NCBI GenBank assembly: GCA_963846695.1
Contig: CAWJXL010000002.1
Location: 257,728 to 281,727 of the forward strand
Origin: an uncultured Fibrobacterota bacterium
GTDB taxonomy: Bacteria; Fibrobacterota; Chitinivibrionia; Chitinivibrionales; Chitinispirillaceae
Direction: 5' to 3'
Length of the DNA: 24,000 nucleotides
The number at the start of each line of letters is the position of its first letter. Within the stretch, counting starts at the first letter, position 1. Made by a program: the position numbers and the translations under genes. Of this stretch, positions 3,504 to 24,000 are shown piece by piece. The notes below the pieces were generated by a model. It was not told the DNA's origin and did no database searches. It saw only the letters and a list, made by a program, of their open reading frames with translations.

Positions 3504-4806
3504 TTATTTTCCGGCCTGGCCCTTTTTCACCGCGACGCCTTCAACCGTGAGGTTCCGCGACGCATGAGACAAAACCACAATGCCGCTGTCACTCACGAAG
3601 AACCTTTTTGCATCCCCTTCCAAATTATATCCTATTTTGTCGCCGGGTTCCACTCGGACGCCCCGGTCGATGATGGCTTTCCGCACCAGAGCTTTTTCGC
3701 CGATTTCAACGTCAGGGAAAATGATCGAATCCTCCACCACGGCAAAACTGTTCACGCGCACTCCCCGTGAGAGGACCGAGCGAATCACCTTGCCTCCGCT
3801 TATGATGCATCCCCCCGCGACGATCGAATCGAGCGCCTCTCCCTCTTCTTTTTTCCGGCCCCTCGCCGTCAAAAACGAATTTGGCGGGCGGTGACTGGCC
3901 CGCAGCGGTGCGGATCGGCCATTCTTCATTATAAAGATTGATTACGGGGACGACCTCCCGCAACGTCATATTCGCCGCATAATAGGCTTCCAGAGTCCCG
4001 ACGTCCTCCCAGTAAACAGTGGGCTTCGGGCTCTCGCCCGGGATCATGTTGTGCGCCATGTTGTAAACGTAAACGGGATAATCGTGGAATATCTTGGGAA
4101 TCACATCTTTACCGAAGTCGTGCGAGGAAATATTCAGCGAGGCATCATTATAGAGTTCCCTGACCAGAAATTTCTTATTGAAGATGTAGTTACCCATGGA
4201 GACAAGGGCCATGCCCGGCCGGTCCGGCATGTGCGCCGGGTTCTTAGGTTTCTCCTGGAACCCGGTCATGAGCCCGCTCGGGTCGACCTCGATGACGCCG
4301 AATTGCGCAGCTTCACAGAGCGGTTTCGGGATGGCGGAAATTGTGGCGACCGCGCCCACCTGCCGATGAAAATCGAGCATCTGGGAGATGTCCATGGTGT
4401 AGATGTGGTCGGCGCCGAACACGGCGATATAATCCGGGTTCTCATCCTCAATGAGATTTATGTTCTGAAATACCGCGTCGGCGGTGCCTTGGTACCATTT
4501 TTTCCCGGTACGCATCTGCGCAGGCACCGGGTCGATATACTGCCCGAGCATCCGGTTCAGGTTCCATCCGGCGGTCAGATGCTTGATGAGCGAATCGGAC
4601 TTGAACTGGGTCAGAACCTTGATCTTGAAAATGCCGGAGTTGATGAAATTATTGAGGACGAAATCGATGATCCGGTACTTGCCGCCGAAGTAGACCGACG
4701 GCTTGGCACGCTCCTGCGTGAGCGGGTACAATCGCGATCCTTCGCCGCCGGCCATGACCATCGCGAGAACGTTGGGATACCCTAACGGCGATCGTGAAGA
4801 GTGCAT
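3504..4806 (-). pseudogene. glgC: glucose-1-phosphate adenylyltransferase, split by one frameshift (possible sequencing artefact)
   Basis: The N-terminus has GGEGSRLYPLTQERAKPSVYFGGKYRIIDF. After PPAKFVFDGEGPEK the expected beta-helix C-terminus (EALDSIVAGGCIISGG...) continues in another frame (ORF 3504-3929). The shift is at or next to the T6 run 3849-3854. The 1303-nt span is not a multiple of 3. The start ATG 4806 gives MHSSRSPLGYPNVLAMVMAGG. Confidence 0.88.
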
Positions 4807-5012
4807 AACGGACCATTTCAATTGAGGTGCACAGCATCGTGAGCCGGGCATGGATCCTGCCCGCTTTGAAAATAGTTTGTAGGACCGGAGAGATCAAAAG
4901 GTATCCGCAGGGTTTTTCGCATCGAGATAGGGGTGAGAGATCGCACTCAGGGGGCGATTCTGCATCGTCATCGAAAAACACCATACCCGCCACGCCAATA
5001 TTGAGAGTCGCA

Positions 5013-5837
5013 CTATTTCCAGGCTATCGCAGCATAATTTCGTTTCGGAATCCGGTAGAAACGGGCGGCAGGATACCCGAGCATCATGGAGCCGAATACT
5101 GCCTGATCTGGGGGCAAGTCGAGCAATGCTTTTACCGCGGGCGATGCGGATGCCGCAATGGTAAAGTACCCGGCCCAGCACGTCCCCAGGCCGAACGCCG
5201 GGGCTGCCAGCTCAAGATAAGTCAGGGCAATGGTTGCGTCGCCCGCCGCGATGCGGTCCGCACTCTGGCCACAGGCCAGCACGAGGTGCGGCGCATTCCG
5301 GCAGATCGGGTCGTTCCCCTCTCGCCACGATTGAAGGAGAAGGCTGAAATTCAGTTTTCCCGCCATAAGCGACTTCTGCTGTTCCGACTCATCCATCCAC
5401 GTCATGACGGCATTGGTCAACTGCCGCACCTTCGATGTATCGTGGACCACGATCCATTTCACCGGCTGCCGATTGACGCCGGAGGGCGCGTAGCGAACGA
5501 TATCGAAGAGATTTGCTAAAATCGACCGGTCAACCGGCTCCTGCCTGTATTTCCTGACCGAGCGGCGTTCAAGGCAGTATGCGGCAAGTTGCGCCGGGGT
5601 GATGCCGTCGTGAGGTCCTGGTTCCGGAACACTTTGCAGAGTGGGGTGGTCGACCGTTACTGCGTTCTCGGGGCAGGCTGCTTCGCAGTGACCGCAGCGA
5701 ACGCAGACAGCGACGAGGCGATCGGAAACATACGGGAAACCGGTCTCCTCATTTTTCCGGATGATTCGCAGGGGACACAGTTCGAGGCAGATCATGCAGC
5801 GGGTGCATTTTGCGGTATCAAAGGAATTTTGCGGCAT
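5013..5837 (-). CDS. nitroreductase family protein with N-terminal 2x[4Fe-4S] ferredoxin domain
   Basis: Two ferredoxin cysteine clusters (CTRCMICLELCP, CVRCGHCEAACP) are followed by a nitroreductase-type region (RRSVRKYRQEPV, APSGVNRQP). Confidence 0.85.
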   Translation of the reverse strand: MPQNSFDTAKCTRCMICLELCPLRIIRKNEETGFPYVSDRLVAVCVRCGHCEAACPENAVTVDHPTLQSVPEPGPHDGITPAQLAAYCLERRSVRKYRQEPVDRSILANLFDIVRYAPSGVNRQPVKWIVVHDTSKVRQLTNAVMTWMDESEQQKSLMAGKLNFSLLLQSWREGNDPICRNAPHLVLACGQSADRIAAGDATIALTYLELAAPAFGLGTCWAGYFTIAASASPAVKALLDLPPDQAVFGSMMLGYPAARFYRIPKRNYAAIAWK

Positions 5838-5966
5838 AAAGAATGCTTCTCTATGACAGATTTCTGATCACCAGATGTTCCGGCAATGCCTCTCCACAGT
5901 TGCGGAATTACCGCTCCTGACACCTGAAACCTATATTCGTCATTCGTCGCCTCCGGAACCGGCGAA

Positions 5967-6278
5967 TTATCGGTACCATCGGAACAGGTAGAGTCCTACG
6001 ATGAGACCGATGAGGGAGAGCAGGCTGAATTTAATCTGAAAACCGAGCATGAGTTTTATGGCGGCCAGGTCGAGGACCGCCGGCTTATTCTGGCTGAAAT
6101 CGCCGATGCCGATCGGGATGCTGCCGGTAAAAAAGGTTTTCACCACGCTTGCGCCTCCGGGCAGCATTTCAACGGCGCTGTTCAGGTAGGAGCCGATGAT
6201 GATACCGAGAATAGCCGCAAGGAAAAGCGAGGGAAACGATCGGTCTTTCAGAAGGCCCGGCATAGAGGCTCCTTTCAT
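5967..6278 (-). CDS. small membrane protein, DUF4321-like
   Basis: It has two hydrophobic segments. The tail LDLAAIKLMLGFQIKFSLLSLIGLIVGLYLFRWYR matches the DUF4321 pattern as I recall it. The start is ATG 6278 or 6263. Confidence 0.65.
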   Translation of the reverse strand: MKGASMPGLLKDRSFPSLFLAAILGIIIGSYLNSAVEMLPGGASVVKTFFTGSIPIGIGDFSQNKPAVLDLAAIKLMLGFQIKFSLLSLIGLIVGLYLFRWYR

Positions 6279-6352
6279 GCGATCCGCACCGCAGTGAACG
6301 CAAAGACAAAAGAAAATACTTTTCGCCGCACGGTTTTTCGCGCCCGATGCGG

Positions 6353-7582
6353 CTATCGCTGAGGCGCTTCGCGAAGTACCATCGATAACTGAAGGTGGTT
6401 GTTGTTCCTGATGATATCCATGCGAACCGTGTCTCCCACATAGTAATCAAGGAAAAAACCCTCGAGGTCGGCGTGCGTCTGGACTCTCCGGTTGCCGATC
6501 TGGTCGATGATGTCGCCGGCCCGGGCGCCCGCGATGTTGCCGGGGCTCCCCTGCTCCACGCTGACGACCACGACTCCGGAGGAACGGTTGACTCCGAGGG
6601 CGGAGGCGATTGAATGATCGATATTCTGCACGGCAATGCCGGTCCAGATATCGCGGCGATGGCCATATCTGATCAGCTCGTCCGCAACGCGGCGCGCGCG
6701 GTTGATCGGTATGGCAAAACCGATGCCGATGGATCCCTTGTTGCTGTTTGAACCGGTATAGATGAAGGTGTTGATGCCGATCACCTCGCCGTCTGCATTG
6801 ACGAGCGGTCCGCCGGAATTCCCCGGATTGATCGGCGCGTCGGTCTGCAGCATTCCCTGGTAGTACACCCCTTCCGCCGGCGCGAAATTCCGGTTCAGTG
6901 CGCTCACGACGCCGACCGTGACGGTCGGGTGCGCATCGTTGATGAAGGTCAGGAACGGATTGCCGATGGCGATCGCCCATTCGCCCGCCATGGCGTCGTC
7001 GGAGTTGCCGAACTTAACCGAGCGGAATGTGCCGCCGCTCACCGATATCACCGCGATATCGGCATGTTCGTCGGTTCCCACCACCTTCCCTTCGATCCTC
7101 CTGCCGTCGGAAAAGTTGACATAGAGTTTTGCGGCATTCTGCACCACGTGATAGTTGGTCAGGATCATGCCGTCGCTGCGGATGACGAAGCCCGATCCGA
7201 TGCTCTCCATCTGGCGAAAGCTGGGCAGCAGTTCCGGGCCGAAAAAGAAGTCGAAGAAATCATCCGACGAATAGGGTGCATGCACCACCTGGATCTGGGT
7301 AACCACGATGCCGACGACGCACGGCGCCACGGCACGGCTCGCCCTGACGATCGCAGTTTCGCGCGTCGAAGGAACGGCGTCATCCGGCGCGCACGCCGGG
7401 CGGATCTTCGCTTCCGCCGCCATGCCGTTGCCGCCCTTCGGCCGGTCGCTTGAGGCAAGGGTCGCTATACGGACCCCGTAAATGTGGCGTATCAGTTCCC
7501 CTCCGGCGATGAGGCCGCAAACGGCGCCGCACGCGAAGAGCACGGCGTAAAAACCGGTTCTGGCAACACGGCGGTTCATCAA
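6353..7582 (-). CDS. HtrA/DegS-type trypsin-like serine protease with one PDZ domain, N-terminal membrane anchor
   Basis: The catalytic triad context is present: TNYHVV, DIAVISV, GNSGGPLVN. A C-terminal PDZ-like segment is VVVVSVEQGSPGNIAGARAGDII. The N-terminal TM segment is FYAVLFACGAVCGLIAGG. Confidence 0.9.
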   Translation of the reverse strand: MMNRRVARTGFYAVLFACGAVCGLIAGGELIRHIYGVRIATLASSDRPKGGNGMAAEAKIRPACAPDDAVPSTRETAIVRASRAVAPCVVGIVVTQIQVVHAPYSSDDFFDFFFGPELLPSFRQMESIGSGFVIRSDGMILTNYHVVQNAAKLYVNFSDGRRIEGKVVGTDEHADIAVISVSGGTFRSVKFGNSDDAMAGEWAIAIGNPFLTFINDAHPTVTVGVVSALNRNFAPAEGVYYQGMLQTDAPINPGNSGGPLVNADGEVIGINTFIYTGSNSNKGSIGIGFAIPINRARRVADELIRYGHRRDIWTGIAVQNIDHSIASALGVNRSSGVVVVSVEQGSPGNIAGARAGDIIDQIGNRRVQTHADLEGFFLDYYVGDTVRMDIIRNNNHLQLSMVLREAPQR

Positions 7583-8313
7583 TCGACCCCCTCATACAAG
7601 ACTTTATCGAGCACCAGTCCGCAGGCCGGGGCGGTCATGCCGGCGCGCCTGCGGTCCTTTGCCGCGAGCAGTTTGGTCATCGATTCGGTAATGCGTCCCC
7701 TTCCGATATCGATGAGGGTGCCCGCGATGGAGCGCACCATGGTATAGACGAAGCGGTTCGCTTCGATGGTGAATACCCTGAGATCGTTCTCGGTGGTGAG
7801 CGACGCATGCGTTACGGTACAGAGTGCATGCCGCGCTCCGCTCCCGGCGGCGCAGAACGCGCTGAAATCGTGCCGACCTTCAAGCAACCGCGCCGACGAT
7901 TCCACCGTGCTCCAGTCAATGGGGTAGAATACCATCCACGCCCGTTTGAAAAGGAGCGGCCGTTTCCGCGGACAGAGAAGATACCGGTAACGCCTGGACC
8001 GGGCGGAGTAACGGGCGTGAAAGCCCTCCGCAACCGCCTGCAGATGGTAAACGGCAATATCGGCCGGCAACAGCGCATTGACCGATGCTTCAACGGCCGC
8101 GGGATCGAAGGGTGTTTCGGTTTCGACATGGGCGCCCTGACCGAGGGCATGAACGCCCGCATCGGTGCGGCCCGCTCCGACGATCCGGCATGAGGCCCGC
8201 AGGACGGTGTGGAACGCCGTTTCGAGCTCTTCCTGTATGGTCGGCGCGTTGTTCTGCCGCTGCCATCCGCCGTAGCGGGTCCCGTCGTATTCGACGCGAA
8301 AAAAATACCTCAT
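7579..8313 (-). CDS. truA: tRNA pseudouridine(38-40) synthase TruA
   Basis: MRYFFRVEYDGTRYGGWQRQ and the catalytic GAGRTDAGVHALGQ motif are present. It has 4-nt overlaps with both neighbouring genes. Confidence 0.92.
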   Translation of the reverse strand: MRYFFRVEYDGTRYGGWQRQNNAPTIQEELETAFHTVLRASCRIVGAGRTDAGVHALGQGAHVETETPFDPAAVEASVNALLPADIAVYHLQAVAEGFHARYSARSRRYRYLLCPRKRPLLFKRAWMVFYPIDWSTVESSARLLEGRHDFSAFCAAGSGARHALCTVTHASLTTENDLRVFTIEANRFVYTMVRSIAGTLIDIGRGRITESMTKLLAAKDRRRAGMTAPACGLVLDKVLYEGVD

Positions 8314-9447
8314 GGCGCCACGGACTCCTTTGCCGCCGCATTTTCCCGGACGATCCGGAAGCAGAGCATTGCAAGCGTGTTCCTGCCGGGCTCGATTCTG
8401 CCGGTCTTGATGCCGGTATCGAAATCGAGCAGCCGGGCGAGCGCCAGCGAAAGGTCCCGGTCCGAGAAACGGTTTGCTTGGTCAACCACGCCGGGTTTGA
8501 TGATAACCGGGAAGACTCTATTCTCCTGGCCATCGCGTAGAAGGCCGGCCGCTTTACCTATTGCTATCGCGCTGGCGGTCTGCCGTGGATTTTTCGATCC
8601 CCGTGCGTCGGCATAGACGCGGCCCACATCGGGATTCATCGCAAGGAATTTTCGTATCCTGAACAGCGCCCAGAAATGCCTGGCCAGGGCGGCGACGACG
8701 AGCGGCAGGTAGACATTGACTGAAAAAAGGTTATCGATGATGCGGAGAGCGGCGGGGAGATCCTGTCGGCCGAGCGCGGCCGCGAGTTCAAACGGCGTCA
8801 TCTCCCGGAAGCCTCCGGTACTGTGATCGATGGCCGCCCGGTCGATCGCCTTGCCCGGCGGGAGCAACAGGTCGATTTTCTGCAACTCCGAATGCAGAAT
8901 ATCCAGATTATAGCCCACCCGGTCGGCCAGATGGCTCGCATCGTTTTTTGCGATGCGCCTTCCGGTGAGGCGGGGAACATTCTGGACGAGCCATTCATCG
9001 ATTTTATGATCAGGCGGCCGGCTGAATTCGGCGATCATGCAGGCGGGAGGGGTGGCTTTCGAGCGTTCGTTCGCGTGGAGCTTATTGATAACCACACCCG
9101 CCTCTTTTTTATCGCCGTCGATCTCGATGATGCAATAGATGCCCGGAATTTCGCATGATAGCGCGGCGTCGAGGTCATCGAGATCTTCGTCCTCAAGCGT
9201 TTGGGCGTGCGGGAGAAGGAAAATCCGCGTCTCCTGGAACAGCGAGGGTGCAAGCATCCGCTGGATGAAGGTCGCGGCGGGCTCCCGGGCGGCGTCGAAA
9301 CGCTCGCGGGTGCACGATCCCTCGCGTTTTGAAAGTTCGGCGACCAGCGCCTCCCGCATGCGCTCGCGGCTCACGGTGTCTTCACCCCAGAGAACGAAGG
9401 CGCGGGCGGTTATCCGGAAATGCCCCCCTGCCGGATCCGGTCGTCAT
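8310..9447 (-). pseudogene. holA: DNA polymerase III subunit delta (HolA), N-terminus in a different frame (1-nt shift, likely at C6 run 9423-9428)
   Basis: The body matches HolA: LFQETRIFLL, and HSELQKIDLLLPPGKAIDRAAIDHSTGGFREMTPFELAAALG. Reading upstream of GTG 9374 in frame gives ITARAFVLWGEDT, the conserved HolA N-terminal block, but no start codon. An ATG at 9447 forms an ATGA overlap with the waaA stop, in the adjacent frame. Confidence 0.72.
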
Positions 9448-18779: not shown

Positions 18780-18801
18780 CAATTATTAGAGTTTGTATTA
18801 T
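18773..18801 (+). promoter_or_regulatory. candidate sigma-70 promoter for the XRE-ImmA-MTase operon (TTGGCA-N17-TATTAT)
   Basis: The hexamers and spacer were counted directly. Its -35 element overlaps the -35 of the divergent promoter within TTGGCAA at 18773-18779. Confidence 0.45.
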
Positions 18802-18806
18802 CTTAC

Positions 18807-18821
18807 GTTGGTAGAGCCAAC
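18807..18821. promoter_or_regulatory. operator-like inverted repeat GTTGG-N5-CCAAC just downstream of the -10 element
   Basis: Read directly from the sequence. It sits at the predicted transcription start of the XRE operon. Further TTGGC half-sites lie at about 18743, 18773 and 18834. Confidence 0.35.
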
Positions 18822-18864
18822 TTTTCCCATTGCTTGGCTTGATTCAACATTTTATTTTGATTGC

Positions 18865-19230
18865 ATGCCCCGTGGAAATAGAATCGAGAAGGTTTTTACA
18901 CTCATTGGCAAGAAAATCAGATCTGCACGATCAAAAACAGATTTATCCCAGGATGATCTTGCAGCAAAGGTCAAGCTTGAACGTTCTTCAATAGTCCTCA
19001 TAGAGAGCGGAAAGCAAAGGCTTCCCATTGACCGGCTCTATCTCGTTGCGCGTGAACTTGGGACAACACCGCAAAAACTACTGCCGGAAATGAAAGAAAT
19101 TTTTGAGGAAGCCGATATGGAAAATCCCGCAGTTACTATTCATGGCGGAACTATAGAAGGCAAGAATGAAATGGGAAAGAAGATATTAAAAATGCTTGAA
19201 CAGCAGAAAGGCGGAGGTAAACATACATGA
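18865..19230 (+). CDS. XRE-family helix-turn-helix transcriptional regulator
   Basis: IGKKIRSARSKTDLSQDDLAAKVKLERSSIVLIESGKQRLPIDRLYLVARELG is a classic HTH_3/XRE domain. I chose ATG 18865 over TTG 18793 because the predicted promoter lies inside the longer ORF. Confidence 0.85.
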   Translation: MPRGNRIEKVFTLIGKKIRSARSKTDLSQDDLAAKVKLERSSIVLIESGKQRLPIDRLYLVARELGTTPQKLLPEMKEIFEEADMENPAVTIHGGTIEGKNEMGKKILKMLEQQKGGGKHT

Positions 19231-19757
19231 GAAAAGACACGGTTGAAAGGAAGGCTCGTCTTCTTATCAACAAATGCAACATCAAGACTCCCCCTGTGGA
19301 CATAGTAATTATCGCTAATGGTTTGGATGTCCGCGTTACTAAGGCCAATCTACCTGATGATATTTCCGGCGTTTTGCAGAAGAATGCAACAGGAATAAGC
19401 ACAATAATGGTCAACAACGAGCATGCACCTGTTCGGCAGCGTTTCACCATTGCACATGAATTGGGGCACTACCTTCTTTCAGATAAAACAGGAGTCATTA
19501 TAGATCAGGCGATTTATTTTCGAGACTCACGGTCACAGGAAGCCGCCGATTATGATGAAATAGTTGCTAACACCTTTGCAGCGGAATTGCTGATGCCTAC
19601 ACCATTTGTTAAAAGTGCAATAAGCCGGATAATCAGCGGAGGCAGACTCAATGCACGCGATGACCTGATAAAAATGCTTGCCGATGATTTCAATGTCAGT
19701 ACAACCGCAATGAGCATAAAATTGCAAAATCTTGGATACCGTTTCTCGGTAGCTTAA
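19227..19757 (+). CDS. ImmA/IrrE-family zinc metallopeptidase
   Basis: HEXXH is present in FTIAHELGHYLL. The size and downstream EAADYDEIVANTFAAELLMP are typical of the family. It overlaps the XRE gene stop through ATGA. Confidence 0.88.
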   Translation: MRKDTVERKARLLINKCNIKTPPVDIVIIANGLDVRVTKANLPDDISGVLQKNATGISTIMVNNEHAPVRQRFTIAHELGHYLLSDKTGVIIDQAIYFRDSRSQEAADYDEIVANTFAAELLMPTPFVKSAISRIISGGRLNARDDLIKMLADDFNVSTTAMSIKLQNLGYRFSVA

Positions 19758-19774
19758 ACTGCAAGGCACCTACT

Positions 19775-22672
19775 ATGCCCAATAAGCGCTCCATTATCTC
19801 CACGTTCTCCCGCGCAACGCTTCTCGAAATTGCCCGCTCTTTTGAACTGCCGGGCCTTACCTCAAAGCCGAAAGAAGAAATCCTCGCTGCCCTCATGGGA
19901 AAACGAACTGCAACGATTGAAGAGATATTGAACACCCTGTCGGTAGCGGATATTAAGGCGATCTGCAAGGAATTCTCGATTCCCACCGGGTCGGCGAAGA
20001 AAGACGATCTTGTTGCAAGGCTCCTGAACGGCGAAGCCGGGGACCCGGAAGAAAACCTGGGTCCTAAAGGTAAGCCGCCGCAACCCGAAAAAACGACGCC
20101 AAAAAACTCAAATCAAAAAACCGGATTTCCTATGCCTAAAAGCGATTCAAACGGCAAGCCTATTGAACAATATACCCACGATAAGGAAGAACGGCTCAAT
20201 AACCCGCCGGTGGGTCTTGTGACCCCGCAGACCGATAAAGACGGCGCAAAGAAGAAATACGCCTACGACCCCCACCTTGACCCGCAGCTCCAATGGGCCG
20301 GGAAAGCCGAGCATACCAGCTTCGAAGTACCGACCGTGAGCCTGCACGTACACGAGCGGATCGACCCGAAGAGAATAATAGAACAGATTAAAAAAGAAGA
20401 GAAAAAAGACTCTGAACAAATTTCAATGTTCGAAACGCAGGAGCGGCCGCTCCGGGAAGCCATAGAATTTTATAAACATAAAGACGGATGGACCAACAGG
20501 CTCATTGCCGGTGATTCACTGCTTGTAATGAATTCGTTACTGGAAAAAGAGGGAATGGGCGGGAAGGTGCAGATGGTGTATTTTGACCCGCCGTATGGAA
20601 TCACATATAAAAGTAATTTTCAACCATTTACCAACAAAAAGGAAGTAAAAGATACCGATAATGATTTAGCTACTGAACCTGAAACGATCAAGGCATTTCG
20701 GGATACTTGGGAATTAGGAATTCACTCTTATCTGACTTACCTGCGCGACAGAATATTGCTCGCAAAAATGCTTATATCAGATTCTGGGTGCATATGTTTG
20801 CAGATGAATTCAGAAAATGTCGCCATTACTCGATTGCTTCTTGACGAGATATTTGGCATAAATAACTTGGTTGCCGATATCGTTTTTCGGAAAAAAAGCC
20901 TACCTCTCGGCGCCAAATACGTTGAGACAATGCACGATCACATTCTTTGCTATGCCAAGGATAAAGACCAATTTAAGTATCGCCAACTTTTTCAATATAT
21001 GGATGAGGTAACAAGTCATTGGAGATTCGCTTTACTACCAAATGGGGAAATCCTTCGAATTGCACCTCAGGAATTTCGTTCACCGCAACATCCGAAGGGC
21101 ACAAGATATTATCGGTTGTTCTCTCTAATTGCGCCTTCTTACAGCGCGAACACGGATTTCGTTTATAAATATAAGGGCAAAGAATATCGTCCACCGAGTA
21201 ATGGGTCATGGGTAGTAGACAAACAAAAGCTTGATAAGCTTGCTTTAATTGAAAGGCTTGAAATTGAAGGAAGCAGCATAAGTTATCGATTATTCTTTGA
21301 TGATTTTCCTTATCGAAAGCTTACAAACCTTTGGCTCGATGTTGCGGTATCCTACCAAAAGTTATATGCAGTCCAGACTACTGAGCAGGTAATTTCTCGC
21401 TGTTTATTAATGACCACCGATCCCGGCGATCTCGTCCTCGATATCACTTGCGGTTCCGGTACATCCGCATATGTCGCCGAACAGTGGGGCCGCCGCTGGG
21501 TCACCTGCGACACCTCCCGCGTCGCTATCACCCTCGCAAAACAGCGTCTCATGTCGGCTGTTTACGATTATTATGAGCTTGCGCAACCAGCAGAAGGAAT
21601 TTCCTCGGGCTTCAAATACAAAACGGTTCCGCACATCACGCTCAAGTCCATCGCCAATAACGAGCCCGCAGTCCCGGAGACTCTTTACGACCAGCCTTTA
21701 ATCGACACGAAAAGAAAGCGCGTCACCGGCCCCTTTACCGTCGAAGCCGTCCCCGCCCCTACGGTCAAATCCTTCGACGATATAGAGTCCGAAAACACCG
21801 GAGTTTCCGATACCTCGGTCGCCCGTTCCGGCGAGACCTTGCGGCAGTCGGAGTGGCGGGAAGAACTGCTCCGCACCGGGGTGCGCGGCAAGAACGGGCA
21901 GTATATTAAATTCAGCCGGATCGAGCCGATGAGCGGCACCCGGCATTTGCAGGCCGAAGGGGAAACGAAGTGGTCGGATGCCGGGGCAAATACGGTTCGC
22001 GAAGAGCCGAAGGAGTGGCGACCGCAACGGGTTTTAATCTGCTTCGGCCCGGAACATGCGCCGCTCGAACGGCGGACGGTAGAAAACGCCTGGCAGGAGG
22101 CGCGACCATTCAAGCCGGATATTCTGCTTTTCTGCGCTTTTCAGTTTGACGAAGAGGCGGCAAAGGATATCGACGAGCTAAAGCCGGAAATTGCCGGAAT
22201 GCAACTTCTGAAGGTGCAGATGAACGCTGATTTATTAACCGACGATCTTCGCAAGAAGCGGTCGAGCAATGAGAGCTTCTGGCTCATCGGGCAACCGGAC
22301 GTTGAATTGCGGGAGATCAAAAAGGGCGAACACAAGGGGAAGTATGAGATCGAGGTTTTGGGATTCGATTACTACAACCCGAAAACCGGGGTGGTCGAAT
22401 CAGGCGGCAAGCATCAGATTGCCATGTGGATGCTCGATACCGATTACGACGGAAGAAGCCTTTTCCCCTCTCAGGTATTTTTCCCCATGGCCGGGGAAAG
22501 CGAGGGGTGGGCGACACTCGCGCGAAATCTCCGCGCGGAAATCGATGAGGAAAAAATGGAAGCTTTTCGCGGCACGGTTTCGTTGCCCTTCAGCGCAGCC
22601 AGTGGGAAACAAGCGGCGGTGAAAATCGTGGATGACAGGGGAATTGAAAGCTTGAAGATTGTGAGGATATAG
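19775..22672 (+). CDS. site-specific DNA methyltransferase, beta-class N6A/N4C family, type III Mod-like, 965 aa with N-terminal tandem SAP/HeH-like motifs and a long C-terminal extension
   Basis: Motif IV, VQMVYFDPPYGI (DPPY at 20585-20596), precedes motif I, LVLDITCGSGTSAYVAEQWGRRWVTCD (about 21434-21500). The conserved blocks YDPHLDPQLQWAGK and MWMLDTDYDGRSLFPSQVFFPMAG are those I associate with long Mod-like enzymes. Confidence 0.92.
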   Translation: MPNKRSIISTFSRATLLEIARSFELPGLTSKPKEEILAALMGKRTATIEEILNTLSVADIKAICKEFSIPTGSAKKDDLVARLLNGEAGDPEENLGPKGKPPQPEKTTPKNSNQKTGFPMPKSDSNGKPIEQYTHDKEERLNNPPVGLVTPQTDKDGAKKKYAYDPHLDPQLQWAGKAEHTSFEVPTVSLHVHERIDPKRIIEQIKKEEKKDSEQISMFETQERPLREAIEFYKHKDGWTNRLIAGDSLLVMNSLLEKEGMGGKVQMVYFDPPYGITYKSNFQPFTNKKEVKDTDNDLATEPETIKAFRDTWELGIHSYLTYLRDRILLAKMLISDSGCICLQMNSENVAITRLLLDEIFGINNLVADIVFRKKSLPLGAKYVETMHDHILCYAKDKDQFKYRQLFQYMDEVTSHWRFALLPNGEILRIAPQEFRSPQHPKGTRYYRLFSLIAPSYSANTDFVYKYKGKEYRPPSNGSWVVDKQKLDKLALIERLEIEGSSISYRLFFDDFPYRKLTNLWLDVAVSYQKLYAVQTTEQVISRCLLMTTDPGDLVLDITCGSGTSAYVAEQWGRRWVTCDTSRVAITLAKQRLMSAVYDYYELAQPAEGISSGFKYKTVPHITLKSIANNEPAVPETLYDQPLIDTKRKRVTGPFTVEAVPAPTVKSFDDIESENTGVSDTSVARSGETLRQSEWREELLRTGVRGKNGQYIKFSRIEPMSGTRHLQAEGETKWSDAGANTVREEPKEWRPQRVLICFGPEHAPLERRTVENAWQEARPFKPDILLFCAFQFDEEAAKDIDELKPEIAGMQLLKVQMNADLLTDDLRKKRSSNESFWLIGQPDVELREIKKGEHKGKYEIEVLGFDYYNPKTGVVESGGKHQIAMWMLDTDYDGRSLFPSQVFFPMAGESEGWATLARNLRAEIDEEKMEAFRGTVSLPFSAASGKQAAVKIVDDRGIESLKIVRI

Positions 22673-22674
22673 CG

Positions 22675-24000
22675 ATGAACGGACAAAATCGGTTTGAGCC
22701 TATCGAACAGGCGCTTCTAAAACCGGCAGGTGCGCGGTTTTGGAAATGCGCCTTGCAAATTAATCCTTTTGATTATGCAAAGAATTTCCAAGGAGACAAA
22801 TCTGTCCAAAGCGAAGATGCCTATAATCGTGCTTTATGTGATGCATGCGTTACAAATAAAGTGGAAATTGTTGGCATTGCCGATCACGGCTCGGTTGAAA
22901 GGATCGATAATCTTCGTGCTATTCTTGAAAAGGTCTCTATTTGCGTTTTCCCTGGCTTCGAAATTGCAAGCACCGAAAAGATACATATGGTTTGCCTTTT
23001 TGAGCCCGGCACCCCGATAACAACTCTCAATCGGTATCTTGGAAATCTGGATATGACTGATTCTTCTGACCCAGTGCACCCATCAAATTTTAGCTGCCTT
23101 GAGTTAGGAAAAAAAATTCTTGATCTGGGCGGTATCTGGTATGCCGCACATATGACAGGGAATAACGGCTTATTAAAACTTGATGGCCCCGGAGATAATT
23201 ATAAGCATATCTGGGAAAATGAACATATAGTTCTTGCAGGTCAGATTCCCGGTTTGAAAAAAGATCTCCCGGAAAACTATTTGAAAATAATTGACAATAT
23301 TAACGTTGATTATTATCGCAACAGGAAAATTGCGGTTATTAATGCCAGAGATGTTTTCTTGCCGGAGGACATTTCGAATGCATCTTCCACCTGCCACATA
23401 AAAATGACTTTGCCGAGCATTGAAGCGCTGAAACAGGCATTTTTTGATCCTGAATCAAGAATCCGTCTGCAAGCCGAAATCGAGCATCACCCACCATCCA
23501 GAATTATCGCCATTGCCTGGGAAGGTAATTTTCTCGATGGAATCAGAATACATTTAGGCGAGAATCTTAATGCCTTGATTGGAGGACGCGGAACCGGAAA
23601 ATCCACCATAATCGAAACAATCCGATACGCATTTAATAAAGCTCCCCTTGGTGAGGAAGCCCGTAAAGCTTGTCTTGAAATTCTTAAATCAAATATGGGT
23701 TCTGGGACGCAGGTTAGCCTGAAAATTGCATCCCAGACAAGGCTCGGAAAAGAGTTCATAATTCGTCGTCGGTTTGGAGATCCTCCGGAGGTTTTTGATG
23801 ATGCGGGTATGCTCTCTCAATTTTCTCCTAATGAATTAATGCCAGGACTTCAAATTCTTGGCCAAAATGAAATAATTGAAATTGCGCGCAACACTGCAAG
23901 CCAGTATGAACTAATTAAAAAATTTATTCCCGACAGTGCTGCGCTTCAAAAACGGATTGCCGAAATACGAAAAAAACTTTCGGATAATCGAATGCGGCTT
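22675..24000 (+). CDS. PHP-like phosphoesterase domain fused to SMC/ABC-type (AAA-like) ATPase; 3' end beyond window
   Basis: My own translation from ATG 22675 (2 nt after the MTase stop) runs 442 codons without a stop to the window end. PHP-like blocks are VEIVGIADHGS, VFPGFEIAS, IHMVCLF and WYAAHM. The ATPase head has NLNALIGGRGTGKSTIIETIRYAF (Walker A at 23581-23607), followed by LGQNEIIE and a helical, coiled-coil-like stretch. Confidence 0.85.
   Translation, partial: MNGQNRFEPIEQALLKPAGARFWKCALQINPFDYAKNFQGDKSVQSEDAYNRALCDACVTNKVEIVGIADHGSVERIDNLRAILEKVSICVFPGFEIASTEKIHMVCLFEPGTPITTLNRYLGNLDMTDSSDPVHPSNFSCLELGKKILDLGGIWYAAHMTGNNGLLKLDGPGDNYKHIWENEHIVLAGQIPGLKKDLPENYLKIIDNINVDYYRNRKIAVINARDVFLPEDISNASSTCHIKMTLPSIEALKQAFFDPESRIRLQAEIEHHPPSRIIAIAWEGNFLDGIRIHLGENLNALIGGRGTGKSTIIETIRYAFNKAPLGEEARKACLEILKSNMGSGTQVSLKIASQTRLGKEFIIRRRFGDPPEVFDDAGMLSQFSPNELMPGLQILGQNEIIEIARNTASQYELIKKFIPDSAALQKRIAEIRKKLSDNRMRL

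Follow-up and report, generated by a model that had tools for sequence, protein, structure and literature searches.

A TrlF-family PHP-ATPase of an uncultured Fibrobacterota bacterium with a conserved Gln-x-Asn in place of the first His-x-His metal motif

Introduction

The gene considered here, a member of the trlF family, lies at the end of a 24,000-nucleotide stretch of DNA (hereafter the window) from an uncultured Fibrobacterota bacterium of the Chitinispirillaceae (assembly GCA_963846695.1, contig CAWJXL010000002.1, positions 257,728 to 281,727; G000:C2:257728-281727). The window holds the first 442 of its 900 codons (22675..24000, plus strand), and the encoded TrlF consists of an N-terminal PHP-fold domain followed by an SMC/Rad50-like ABC ATPase with a coiled-coil insert. 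Where canonical PHP domains carry their first metal-binding motif, D-x-H-x-H (the HxH type), the protein reads A-L-Q-I-N. Comparison with homologues indicates that this A-x-Q-x-N (QxN) replacement arose essentially once and was then held, as a fixed remodelling of the site under selection and not as erosion, in a large monophyletic subfamily.

The TrlF family itself is already known, and the new element is the A-x-Q-x-N subfamily. Neither this subfamily, nor its escape from the Pfam PHP model, its retained triad and aspartate, or the coexistence of its members with an HxH pair is described in the searchable literature, in which no paper combining 'PHP domain' and 'QXN' was found either.

Metal-ligand positions of the PHP-like domain

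Nine metal-coordinating positions are distinguished in PHP domains, with the consensus H, H, D/H, H, E, H, C/H, D/N, H (Barros et al., PMC3666897). They were located in the window protein by fetching 80 related loci from genome assemblies, reading their full open reading frames (ORFs) and aligning the domain in 41 sequences. All features given below are on the plus strand unless stated otherwise. Motif I, A26-L27-Q28-I29-N30 on beta-1 (22750..22764), stands in place of the D-L-H-x-H of 23 canonical PHP-ATPases to which it was aligned. Q28 and N30 thereby occupy positions 1 and 2, both of which are His in the consensus, and Ala26 replaces the Asp that precedes HxH in canonical members. Position 3 is uncertain: this protein has S43, and 90 of the 120 close homologues have His.

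The following five positions, 4 to 8, are all kept. Position 4 is H71 of motif II (D70-H71, 22882..22887), which is invariant in three alignments and in both of the clades described below, and position 5, the bridging glutamate E96 (22960..22962), is invariant in three alignments and aligns to E76 of EndoQ. H104 (22984..22986) and H159 (23149..23151) provide positions 6 and 7. Position 8 is D226, an invariant column within motif V, N223-A-R-D226-V-F228 (23341..23358). Position 9, a His in the consensus, is F228 here and variable across the clade.

In the 41-sequence alignment the columns of L27, E96 and D226 do not vary, and ALQIN is in register with DLHxH and D226-V-F228 with D-A-H. At motif I the close relatives have [FY][WY][KR]-C-A-L-Q-V-N-P, and distant PHP-ATPases have F-F-R-x-D-L-H-I-H-S, W-R-x-x-D-L-H-N-H-S or W-x-K-W-D-L-H-I-H-T. 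The distance from motif I to Walker A is equal in the QxN and HxH groups (about 276-280 residues). The register of motif V is off by one in hhalign, which sets R225 opposite the Asp; MAFFT, in three alignments, and HMMER, which places the residue at EndoQ D193, favour D226.

The YcdX structure, reportedly the 2003 work of Teplyakov et al., is said to have three metal sites: one made by positions 5, 6 and 7, another by positions 1, 2, 5 and 8, and the last by positions 3, 4 and 9. Mapped in this way, the window protein has an intact E-H-H site, the site made of positions 1, 2, 5 and 8 keeps its Glu and Asp with Gln and Asn replacing two His, and the site of positions 3, 4 and 9 is largely gone.

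Conservation of the motif and integrity of the gene

Among the 120 closest homologues (47-58 % identical) C25, A26, L27, Q28 and N30 are invariant, giving the motif C25-A-L-Q-[VI]-N-P; D70/H71, F92-P-G-F-E96, H104, H159 and D226 are invariant as well. A search with residues 1-285 returned 969 representative clusters at E<=1e-3. Among the best 150 of these, 98 read C-A-L-Q-x-N and one has the canonical S-D-L-H-I-H, most of the remainder being fragments or near variants (V-A-L-Q-V-N, C-A-F-Q-V-N, A-A-L-H-V-N). Over 149 full-length proteins the states of the site are x-D-H-H-D-H-E-H-H-S-D-A-H in the canonical type and C-A-Q-N-[DN]-H-E-H-H-x-D-[VI]-x in the QxN type, and position 228 may be A, S, E, K, D, C, F, V, W or Y across the QxN clade.

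Since statistics for residues 26, 28 and 30 are circular when the groups are defined by those same residues, a tree was built from the ATPase half alone and the clade was taken from it. Every A-Q-N sequence falls inside one clade of 116-117 tips (support 0.993), the sister of which is a D-H-H clade. A-Q-N is found in 106 of the 114 scorable tips; the other tips are three A-H-N, one A-H-H, one each of V-Q-N, S-Q-N and A-Q-A, three gapped rows and one D-H-H. H71, E96, H104, H159 and D226 are conserved at 98-100 % in both the QxN and the D-H-H groups. Mean pairwise identity within the QxN clade is 38 % in the PHP-like domain, 34 % in the N-terminal head half, 22 % in the coiled coil and 50 % in the C-terminal head half, against 39, 35, 27 and 51 % for the same regions of the D-H-H relatives. 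In both groups the PHP-like domain is thus better conserved than either the coiled coil or the N-terminal head half, and pairwise identity gives no sign of relaxed constraint on the QxN domain relative to its D-H-H relatives. We consider it probable that the site is functional and under selection.

A further acid-to-amide switch, from Glu to Gln190 on a later strand, was also considered as a companion of QxN. Although present in the 120 close homologues, it falls below 90 % across the wider clade and was dropped. A separate PHP-ATPase lineage, seen in a Candidatus Paceibacterota metagenome-assembled genome (MAG; L063:5359-8091), reads D-L-Q-I-Q and has Arg for the terminal His, a parallel loss outside the QxN clade.

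The gene is intact and translationally coupled, and the window contains its 5' half. From the ATG at 22675 the frame runs for 442 codons without a stop up to base 24000, and in the contig it continues for 1,377 nucleotides beyond the window edge, to window-equivalent position 25377. The complete ORF (L001:4675-7377, where L001 coordinates are window coordinates minus 18000) encodes 900 amino acids, with zero stops and zero N. The stop codon of the upstream methylase gene is 2 nucleotides before the ATG, and a GAGGA Shine-Dalgarno sequence is found 7 nucleotides 5' of it.

A decaying relic or pseudogene, its active site eroding in this genome, was the first impression given by the absence of the canonical motifs together with the absence of the gene from the ORF track. 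The integrity and conservation tests refute it, and we leave it only a very slight probability. The 900-codon frame is free of stops and matches the family model over its full length, all ATPase motifs are intact, the operon coupling is tight, and the unusual residues are invariant in hundreds of homologues. What a genuinely broken copy looks like can be seen in a related genome (G036:C3:119208-121801; L091), the trlF of which is interrupted by several stops (TGA, TAG, TAA). Among 41 related genomes just three have an intact TrlF, and one further genome has the stop-broken copy.

A preliminary description of the same DNA, made from its letters and a list of ORFs, had reported a frame open for 442 codons to the window edge and missing from the ORF track. 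The frame was reproduced by comparing the lists of open-ended and closed ORFs: 22675..24000 appears only when open-ended ORFs are listed, and the closed list gives only 22730-23020 (plus strand) and 23487-23759 (minus strand). Its absence is thus an artefact, because the track omits open-ended frames, and the stop or frameshift that the description envisaged just beyond the window as the mark of a decayed gene is absent from the contig. The description had also called the metal site divergent or partly degenerate. Ligands are indeed altered; degeneracy was the wrong word, with A26, Q28 and N30 invariant in 120 homologues and a domain as conserved as that of HxH relatives. Its question whether the QxN variant is specific to a clade can be answered positively from the ATPase tree.

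Fold of the N-terminal domain

Residues 1-290 (22675..23544; barrel core about 20-245) form a true PHP fold, as judged from an AlphaFold model, Foldseek and hhalign. After the barrel core and still inside residues 1-290, the domain includes a conserved linker, IKMT...DPxSRIR. The model of these residues has a predicted local distance difference test score (pLDDT) of 89.1 and a predicted template modelling score (pTM) of 0.85. Foldseek ranks 1-23 against the PDB are all PHP-fold proteins, with probability 0.95-1.00, led by EndoQ (3e-7, TM 0.56 on the query), BAD_1165, RNase AM, Pol III alpha and PolC. A QxN-only profile of 226 sequences matches a profile of HxH-type PHP-ATPase N-termini in hhalign at 99.9 % (E = 2.5e-35, 250 columns), and a mixed profile reaches solved PHP proteins, namely EndoQ (2.6e-10), BAD_1165, TM0559, RNase AM, PolC and YcdX. 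PHP barrels build their metal site at the C-terminal ends of strands, and this is where the conserved residues lie in the AlphaFold model, each of them at such an end of a predicted strand or immediately after it.

Endonuclease Q of Pyrococcus furiosus (PDB 5zb8, 7k30) is the nearest solved structure by both fold and mixed profile, and the two align motif by motif at EndoQ H8/H10, E76, H84, H139 and D193/H195. EndoQ differs in having HxH and D-x-H and an extra Zn-finger domain, and in having no motif II His and no ATPase.

It could be argued that the domain is not PHP, or that a true HxH lies elsewhere and the motifs are misaligned, as the single protein gives no direct match to Pfam PHP or to a PDB sequence: phmmer against the PDB with this protein found only SMC/ABC heads and no PHP structure. 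Among the relatives PF02811 matches 26 of the 41 aligned, no precomputed Pfam PHP match is recorded for any of the 120 listed homologues, and the PADLOC model of Ppl leaves residues 1-235 uncovered, aligning to 236-894 only. The 23 leading Foldseek ranks, the profile match over 250 columns, the placement of the conserved residues at strand ends and the count of zero H-x-H in residues 1-290 nevertheless refute this alternative, the probability of which we regard as minute.

The motif readings of the preliminary description could all be placed: ALQIN at residues 26-30, ADHG at 69-72, FEIAS at 95-99, IHM at 103-105, AAHM at 157-160 and NARDVF at 223-228. It had assigned ALQIN to the usual place of DxHxH and NARDVF to that of the terminal D-x-H, and had taken the later PHP His and Glu positions as kept; the alignment bears out each of these assignments, with H71, E96, H104 and H159 retained. 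A proper HxH elsewhere, which it named as a possible refutation, is absent from residues 1-290. The structure prediction that it proposed agrees with its PHP assignment. The proposed profile comparison with PF02811 and related families came out divided, the canonical PHP-ATPases being matched in hhalign and PF02811 itself giving no match.

Family assignment and the ATPase half

The gene is an ordinary member of an already named and widely annotated family of defence-island proteins. With the NCBIfam model NF045780 (TrlF family AAA-like ATPase), for which the cut-off is 350, the protein reaches 517.1 bits (E = 1.5e-154, far beyond chance), with residues 19-899 on model positions 2-944 of 944, and a genome-wide search with the same model gives this protein 516.9 bits. 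The runner-up NCBIfam models are far lower: Spaf_1101 at 203 bits (cut-off 475) and Ppl, NF042955, at 172.7 bits (cut-off 1000). Matches to Pfam are confined to the ATPase (AAA_23, AAA_21, SMC_N). Walker A, GGRGTGKS, comprises residues 303-310 (23581..23604), and the signature LSTGQK, Walker B LIVDQPED, the D-loop (NLD) and the H-loop (ATHN) follow beyond the window. In a 44-sequence alignment Walker A, the signature S782-x-G-Q, Walker B D805-Q-P-E, D812 and H838 are all invariant.

The full-length AlphaFold model (pLDDT 88.2, pTM 0.75) has two head halves separated by helices at residues ~421-665, and Foldseek pairs it with Smc heads that include coiled coil (1e-11), with JetC of Wadjet and with Rad50, MukB and RecN; no Ppl or TrlF structure was among the PDB entries searched. 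The ATPase half thus resembles the coiled-coil heads of SMC, JetC and Rad50 proteins, and the pairing of a metal nuclease with an SMC-like ATPase recalls Mre11-Rad50 and SbcCD. Unlike in the latter, the nuclease-type domain of TrlF is PHP and not calcineurin-like and is fused in one chain with the ATPase; the coiled coil of TrlF is also short (about 350 residues) compared with these systems and with Wadjet JetC.

Homologues of about 627 amino acids in Planctomycetota MAGs (L023-L036, L040) start at the ATPase head and have no PHP domain. In source annotations many records of QxN-type TrlF carry the label 'ABC-type lipoprotein export system ATPase subunit', 'cobalamin/Fe3+-siderophore transport ATPase' or 'DNA repair ATPase RecN'.

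Operon and genomic context

The operon begins with a CapH/CapP-like pair (18793..19757), a helix-turn-helix (HTH) gene of the XRE type and an M78/ImmA-type peptidase gene (PF12844, PF06114; PADLOC capH 2.6e-11, capP 1.1e-31), and the best promoter-like site is 5' of the HTH gene. The pair is followed by a Mod-like N6/N4 DNA methyltransferase of 965 amino acids (19775..22672; PF01555 4e-27, PADLOC MTase_III 9e-141), and then by trlF. Just past the window edge, at window-equivalent positions 25380-29412, come trlG, which starts 2 nucleotides after the trlF stop, and a Res-like gene. TrlG (L001:7380-8606, 408 amino acids) combines a Schlafen-type AlbA_2 domain with HATPase_c_4 (PF04326 7e-19, PF13749 2e-18), and the Res-like protein (L001:8632-11412, 926 amino acids) is a restriction endonuclease of the BPTD_3080 family with a ResIII helicase (NF046055, 1097 bits). 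Intergenic gaps in the operon are 2-25 nucleotides. By gene content, TrlF-TrlG occupies here the methylase/Res slot of a Type III-like restriction operon, under the HTH/ImmA-type pair. From the HTH gene on (window 18793-24000) the island has a guanine plus cytosine content of 46 %, against 54 % for the genome, which is consistent with horizontal acquisition.

The same pair is found in several other settings. It stands alone at three loci (L082, L084, L085), lies between PglX and PglZ of a BREX operon in Methylovulum psychrotolerans (PGFZ01000018.1, L083), between hsdM-hsdS and hsdR of a Type I system on the Citrobacter IncC plasmid pCFR-0b27 (L094), and between an N6_N4 methylase and a ResIII protein, in the same layout as the window operon, at L086 and L087. 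QxN-type pairs (L083, L094, L086, L087) thus split the modification and restriction halves of three systems, BREX, Type I and N6_N4 methyltransferase/ResIII, and, judged from this recurrence, TrlF-TrlG is a mobile accessory module of the modification/restriction slot. In Firmicutes TrlF of the QxN type is also found as an intact solo gene with no TrlG beside it, on Staphylococcus epidermidis plasmid p1 (L095) and Bacillus mycoides p207 (L096) and at L008-L011, L013 and L016; seven of 16 genome loci have TrlF without TrlG. In such solo proteins the PHP-like domain is the sole non-ATPase module.

A second TrlF-TrlG pair and the founding TrlF

Another contig of the assembly, C6, encodes a second TrlF (4496-7129, 529 bits on NF045780) with its own TrlG (7117-8319; L092:4496-8319), a pair that stands alone among housekeeping-type genes. 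This TrlF has the canonical motif I, A-D-F-H-L-H-T, N-H at motif II, and the E/H/H/D ligands, with Lys for the terminal His. The window TrlF is 26 % identical to it, in the ATPase half only, and the two TrlG proteins are 30 % identical. The nearest plasmid relatives of the C6 TrlF (47 %) are the TrlF of Yersinia ruckeri pYR3, which also reads A-D-F-H-L-H-T, and proteins of plasmids of the Pseudomonas syringae group. The contamination estimate of the assembly is 8.8 %, and both pairs may or may not share one cell.

TrlF takes its name from the temperature restriction locus (TRL) trlR-trlF-trlG of Photorhabdus laumondii (Hapeshi et al., 2020; PMC7554251). Mutations in trlG (AlbA_2 + HATPase_c_4) permit growth of this organism at 36 °C, and trlF yielded none; for a growth-restriction or defence phenotype these genetics are the one source. 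The window locus resembles the Photorhabdus TRL in belonging to the same curated family (517 bits), in combining a PHP-type domain with an SMC-like ATPase, in having TrlG (AlbA_2 + HATPase_c_4) adjacent, and in its patchy, mobile distribution. It differs in lacking trlR and in holding the pair within a methylase/Res operon behind an HTH/M78 pair; moreover, the pYR3 relative named in the Photorhabdus work is of the HxH type, whereas the window TrlF reads A-L-Q-I-N. Judged from that homologue, the founding Photorhabdus TrlF is presumably of the HxH type as well, and the window gene represents a QxN subfamily of its own, to which PGAP also gives the name TrlF. Canonical D-x-H-x-H, which the window TrlF lacks, is not part of NCBI's NF045780 definition, yet it separates the two subfamilies.

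Function of the modified site

We propose that the trinuclear PHP site was rebuilt once, from D-x-H-x-H to A-x-Q-x-N, and then frozen. The His of position 9 would have been let go to drift, and the second-metal triad Glu96/His104/His159, Asp226 and His71 would have been held invariant. Such a site would hold fewer ions than a canonical PHP centre, one at E-H-H and perhaps a second, harder ion on Gln, Asn, Glu and Asp. Its ligand would be a phosphoester, for instance a nucleotide or the 3' end of a DNA strand, which it would bind and probably still hydrolyse. This event would be linked with the ATPase and, at the window locus, also with the Schlafen-like TrlG. The integrity of the gene, its family, the fold, the mapping of the residues, their conservation across the clade and the genomic context are shown by the analysis, and the metal number, the retained catalysis and the coupling to TrlG are what we infer here. 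A reduced-metal site that still works, akin to the QxN form of NagA, is the reading that we favour, at slightly better than an even chance. The chance that the QxN site is still hydrolytic is even or just short of it, and, provided that the site is functional, catalysis and pure sensing are roughly balanced.

A reduced but working site is favoured because the E-H-H triad, the Asp and the motif II His are invariant, because Gln and Asn are fixed at positions 1 and 2, where a dead site would be expected to drift as position 9 does, because the QxN-type TrlF of Firmicutes stands alone without TrlG or another effector domain, and because NagA shows the same switch from HxH to QxN. In NagA, QXN is the natural single-metal form of Escherichia coli and Vibrio cholerae; an engineered HXH-to-QXN mutant is active and an AXA mutant is dead (PMC6016474). 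In both proteins Gln-x-Asn has taken the place of His-x-His on the first strand of a metal-dependent barrel hydrolase, and the second-metal ligands and the last-strand Asp are retained. NagA is, however, a (beta/alpha)8 amidohydrolase that acts on an amide, compared with a (beta/alpha)7 PHP barrel and a phosphoester, and the likeness is an analogy only.

The main rival is a non-catalytic role, in which the PHP-like domain is dead and kept as a nucleotide or DNA-end sensor, or as a docking scaffold, that regulates the ATPase and TrlG or Res, the killing or cleaving activity residing in the Schlafen-like domain of TrlG or the Res-like nuclease. We hold it to be a serious possibility, although well short of an even chance. 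The domain lacks the two His of beta-1, the Asp before them and the terminal His, position 228 is free to vary, the Pfam PHP model gives no match, and a partner with a nuclease-type domain adjoins the gene here. There is also the precedent of E. coli Pol III alpha, in which five ligands of the PHP domain have been lost and the domain has a role in stability and in the binding of epsilon (PMC3666897). Pol III alpha (PDB 2hnh, 4jom), which is among the Foldseek matches, is likewise a PHP fold that lacks part of the nine ligands and is conserved nevertheless. It binds no metal, however, and its replacements are Arg, Phe, Asp and Gly with five of nine ligands lost, whereas QxN-type TrlF fixes invariant polar Gln and Asn at positions 1-2 and keeps positions 4-8, the E-H-H triad and Asp among them. 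The escape mutations of the Photorhabdus TRL, all of them in trlG, fit TrlG as the effector, the component that arrests growth, and lean towards this rival (PMC7554251), although that TrlF is presumably of the HxH type. Against a dead domain stand the solo QxN-type genes, which have no other candidate effector domain. The presence of TrlG next to HxH-type TrlF (the C6 pair, pYR3) argues that TrlG did not arrive to replace a lost nuclease; its recruitment to make up for the loss of HxH was considered and rejected, QxN-type TrlF being moreover often without TrlG.

Ppl can be read both ways. It is said to be a single-gene anti-phage PHP-ATPase, from 2020 work of Gao et al. Its PHP domain is a 3'-5' single-stranded DNA exonuclease restrained by bound nucleoside triphosphates (NTPs), which fires on 3'-OH ends when nucleotide pools drop, and since this domain also binds inhibitory NTPs, a descendant that only senses is conceivable (PMC12904381). 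Ppl (NF042955, PADLOC PDLC02208) resembles TrlF in its order of PHP and then SMC/ABC-type ATPase and in its similar length, and the hidden Markov models align over the ATPase and linker. The window TrlF scores far below the Ppl cut-off and the PADLOC model skips its first 235 residues, and while the PHP domain of Ppl is an active exonuclease, assumed to have canonical ligands, and acts alone, the window TrlF is accompanied by TrlG within a methyltransferase/Res operon.

Besides the Photorhabdus mutations, a number of points weigh against a reduced but working site. Three of the nine ligands are lost, and position 3 is Ser in this protein. PHP nucleases normally use two or three ions for phosphodiester hydrolysis, and NagA is an amide hydrolase of a sister superfamily, so that the analogy is chemical and not direct. 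The arrangement of Q28, N30, E96 and D226 in one site is putative and based on alignment. PF02811 gives no match at E<=1 with the whole protein, nor at E<=0.1 with residues 1-290. The QxN-only N-terminal profile reaches solved PHP structures only at E = 0.47, a weak sequence signal; what ties the domain to PHP is the transitive profile-profile match together with the fold. Finally, the sampling of the ATPase tree (FastTree, midpoint root) was seeded by similarity to this protein.

Implications for the TrlF family

TrlF-TrlG, a pair for which to our knowledge no mechanism has been described, is mobile and widespread. It occurs within loci of the Type I, Type III-like and BREX kinds and also on plasmids, some of them from clinical genera. 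The Pfam PHP model is blind to the QxN subfamily, and such proteins are consequently often annotated merely as 'AAA ATPase' or 'ABC transporter ATPase'. There are two deep TrlF subfamilies, one with a canonical PHP centre and the other with a fixed Gln-x-Asn, and the occurrence of both in this assembly provides a natural variant pair for the question whether the domain is a nuclease or a sensor.

We suggest tentatively, at rather less than even probability, that QxN-type TrlF is the first PHP lineage to turn a trinuclear His centre into a single-metal (E-H-H) or mixed hard-metal centre, through an HxH-to-QxN switch independent of that in NagA, which retunes the domain and does not kill it. If so, the outcome could be the use of another metal, another leaving group, or the change of a processive 3'-5' exonuclease into a ligand-gated sensor of ends or nucleotides by which TrlG or the adjacent restriction enzyme is licensed. 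The likeness to NagA would then be a case of convergent active-site simplification in two related superfamilies of barrel hydrolases, and a genome with both HxH- and QxN-type TrlF-TrlG pairs would carry two functionally distinct versions of one immune module.

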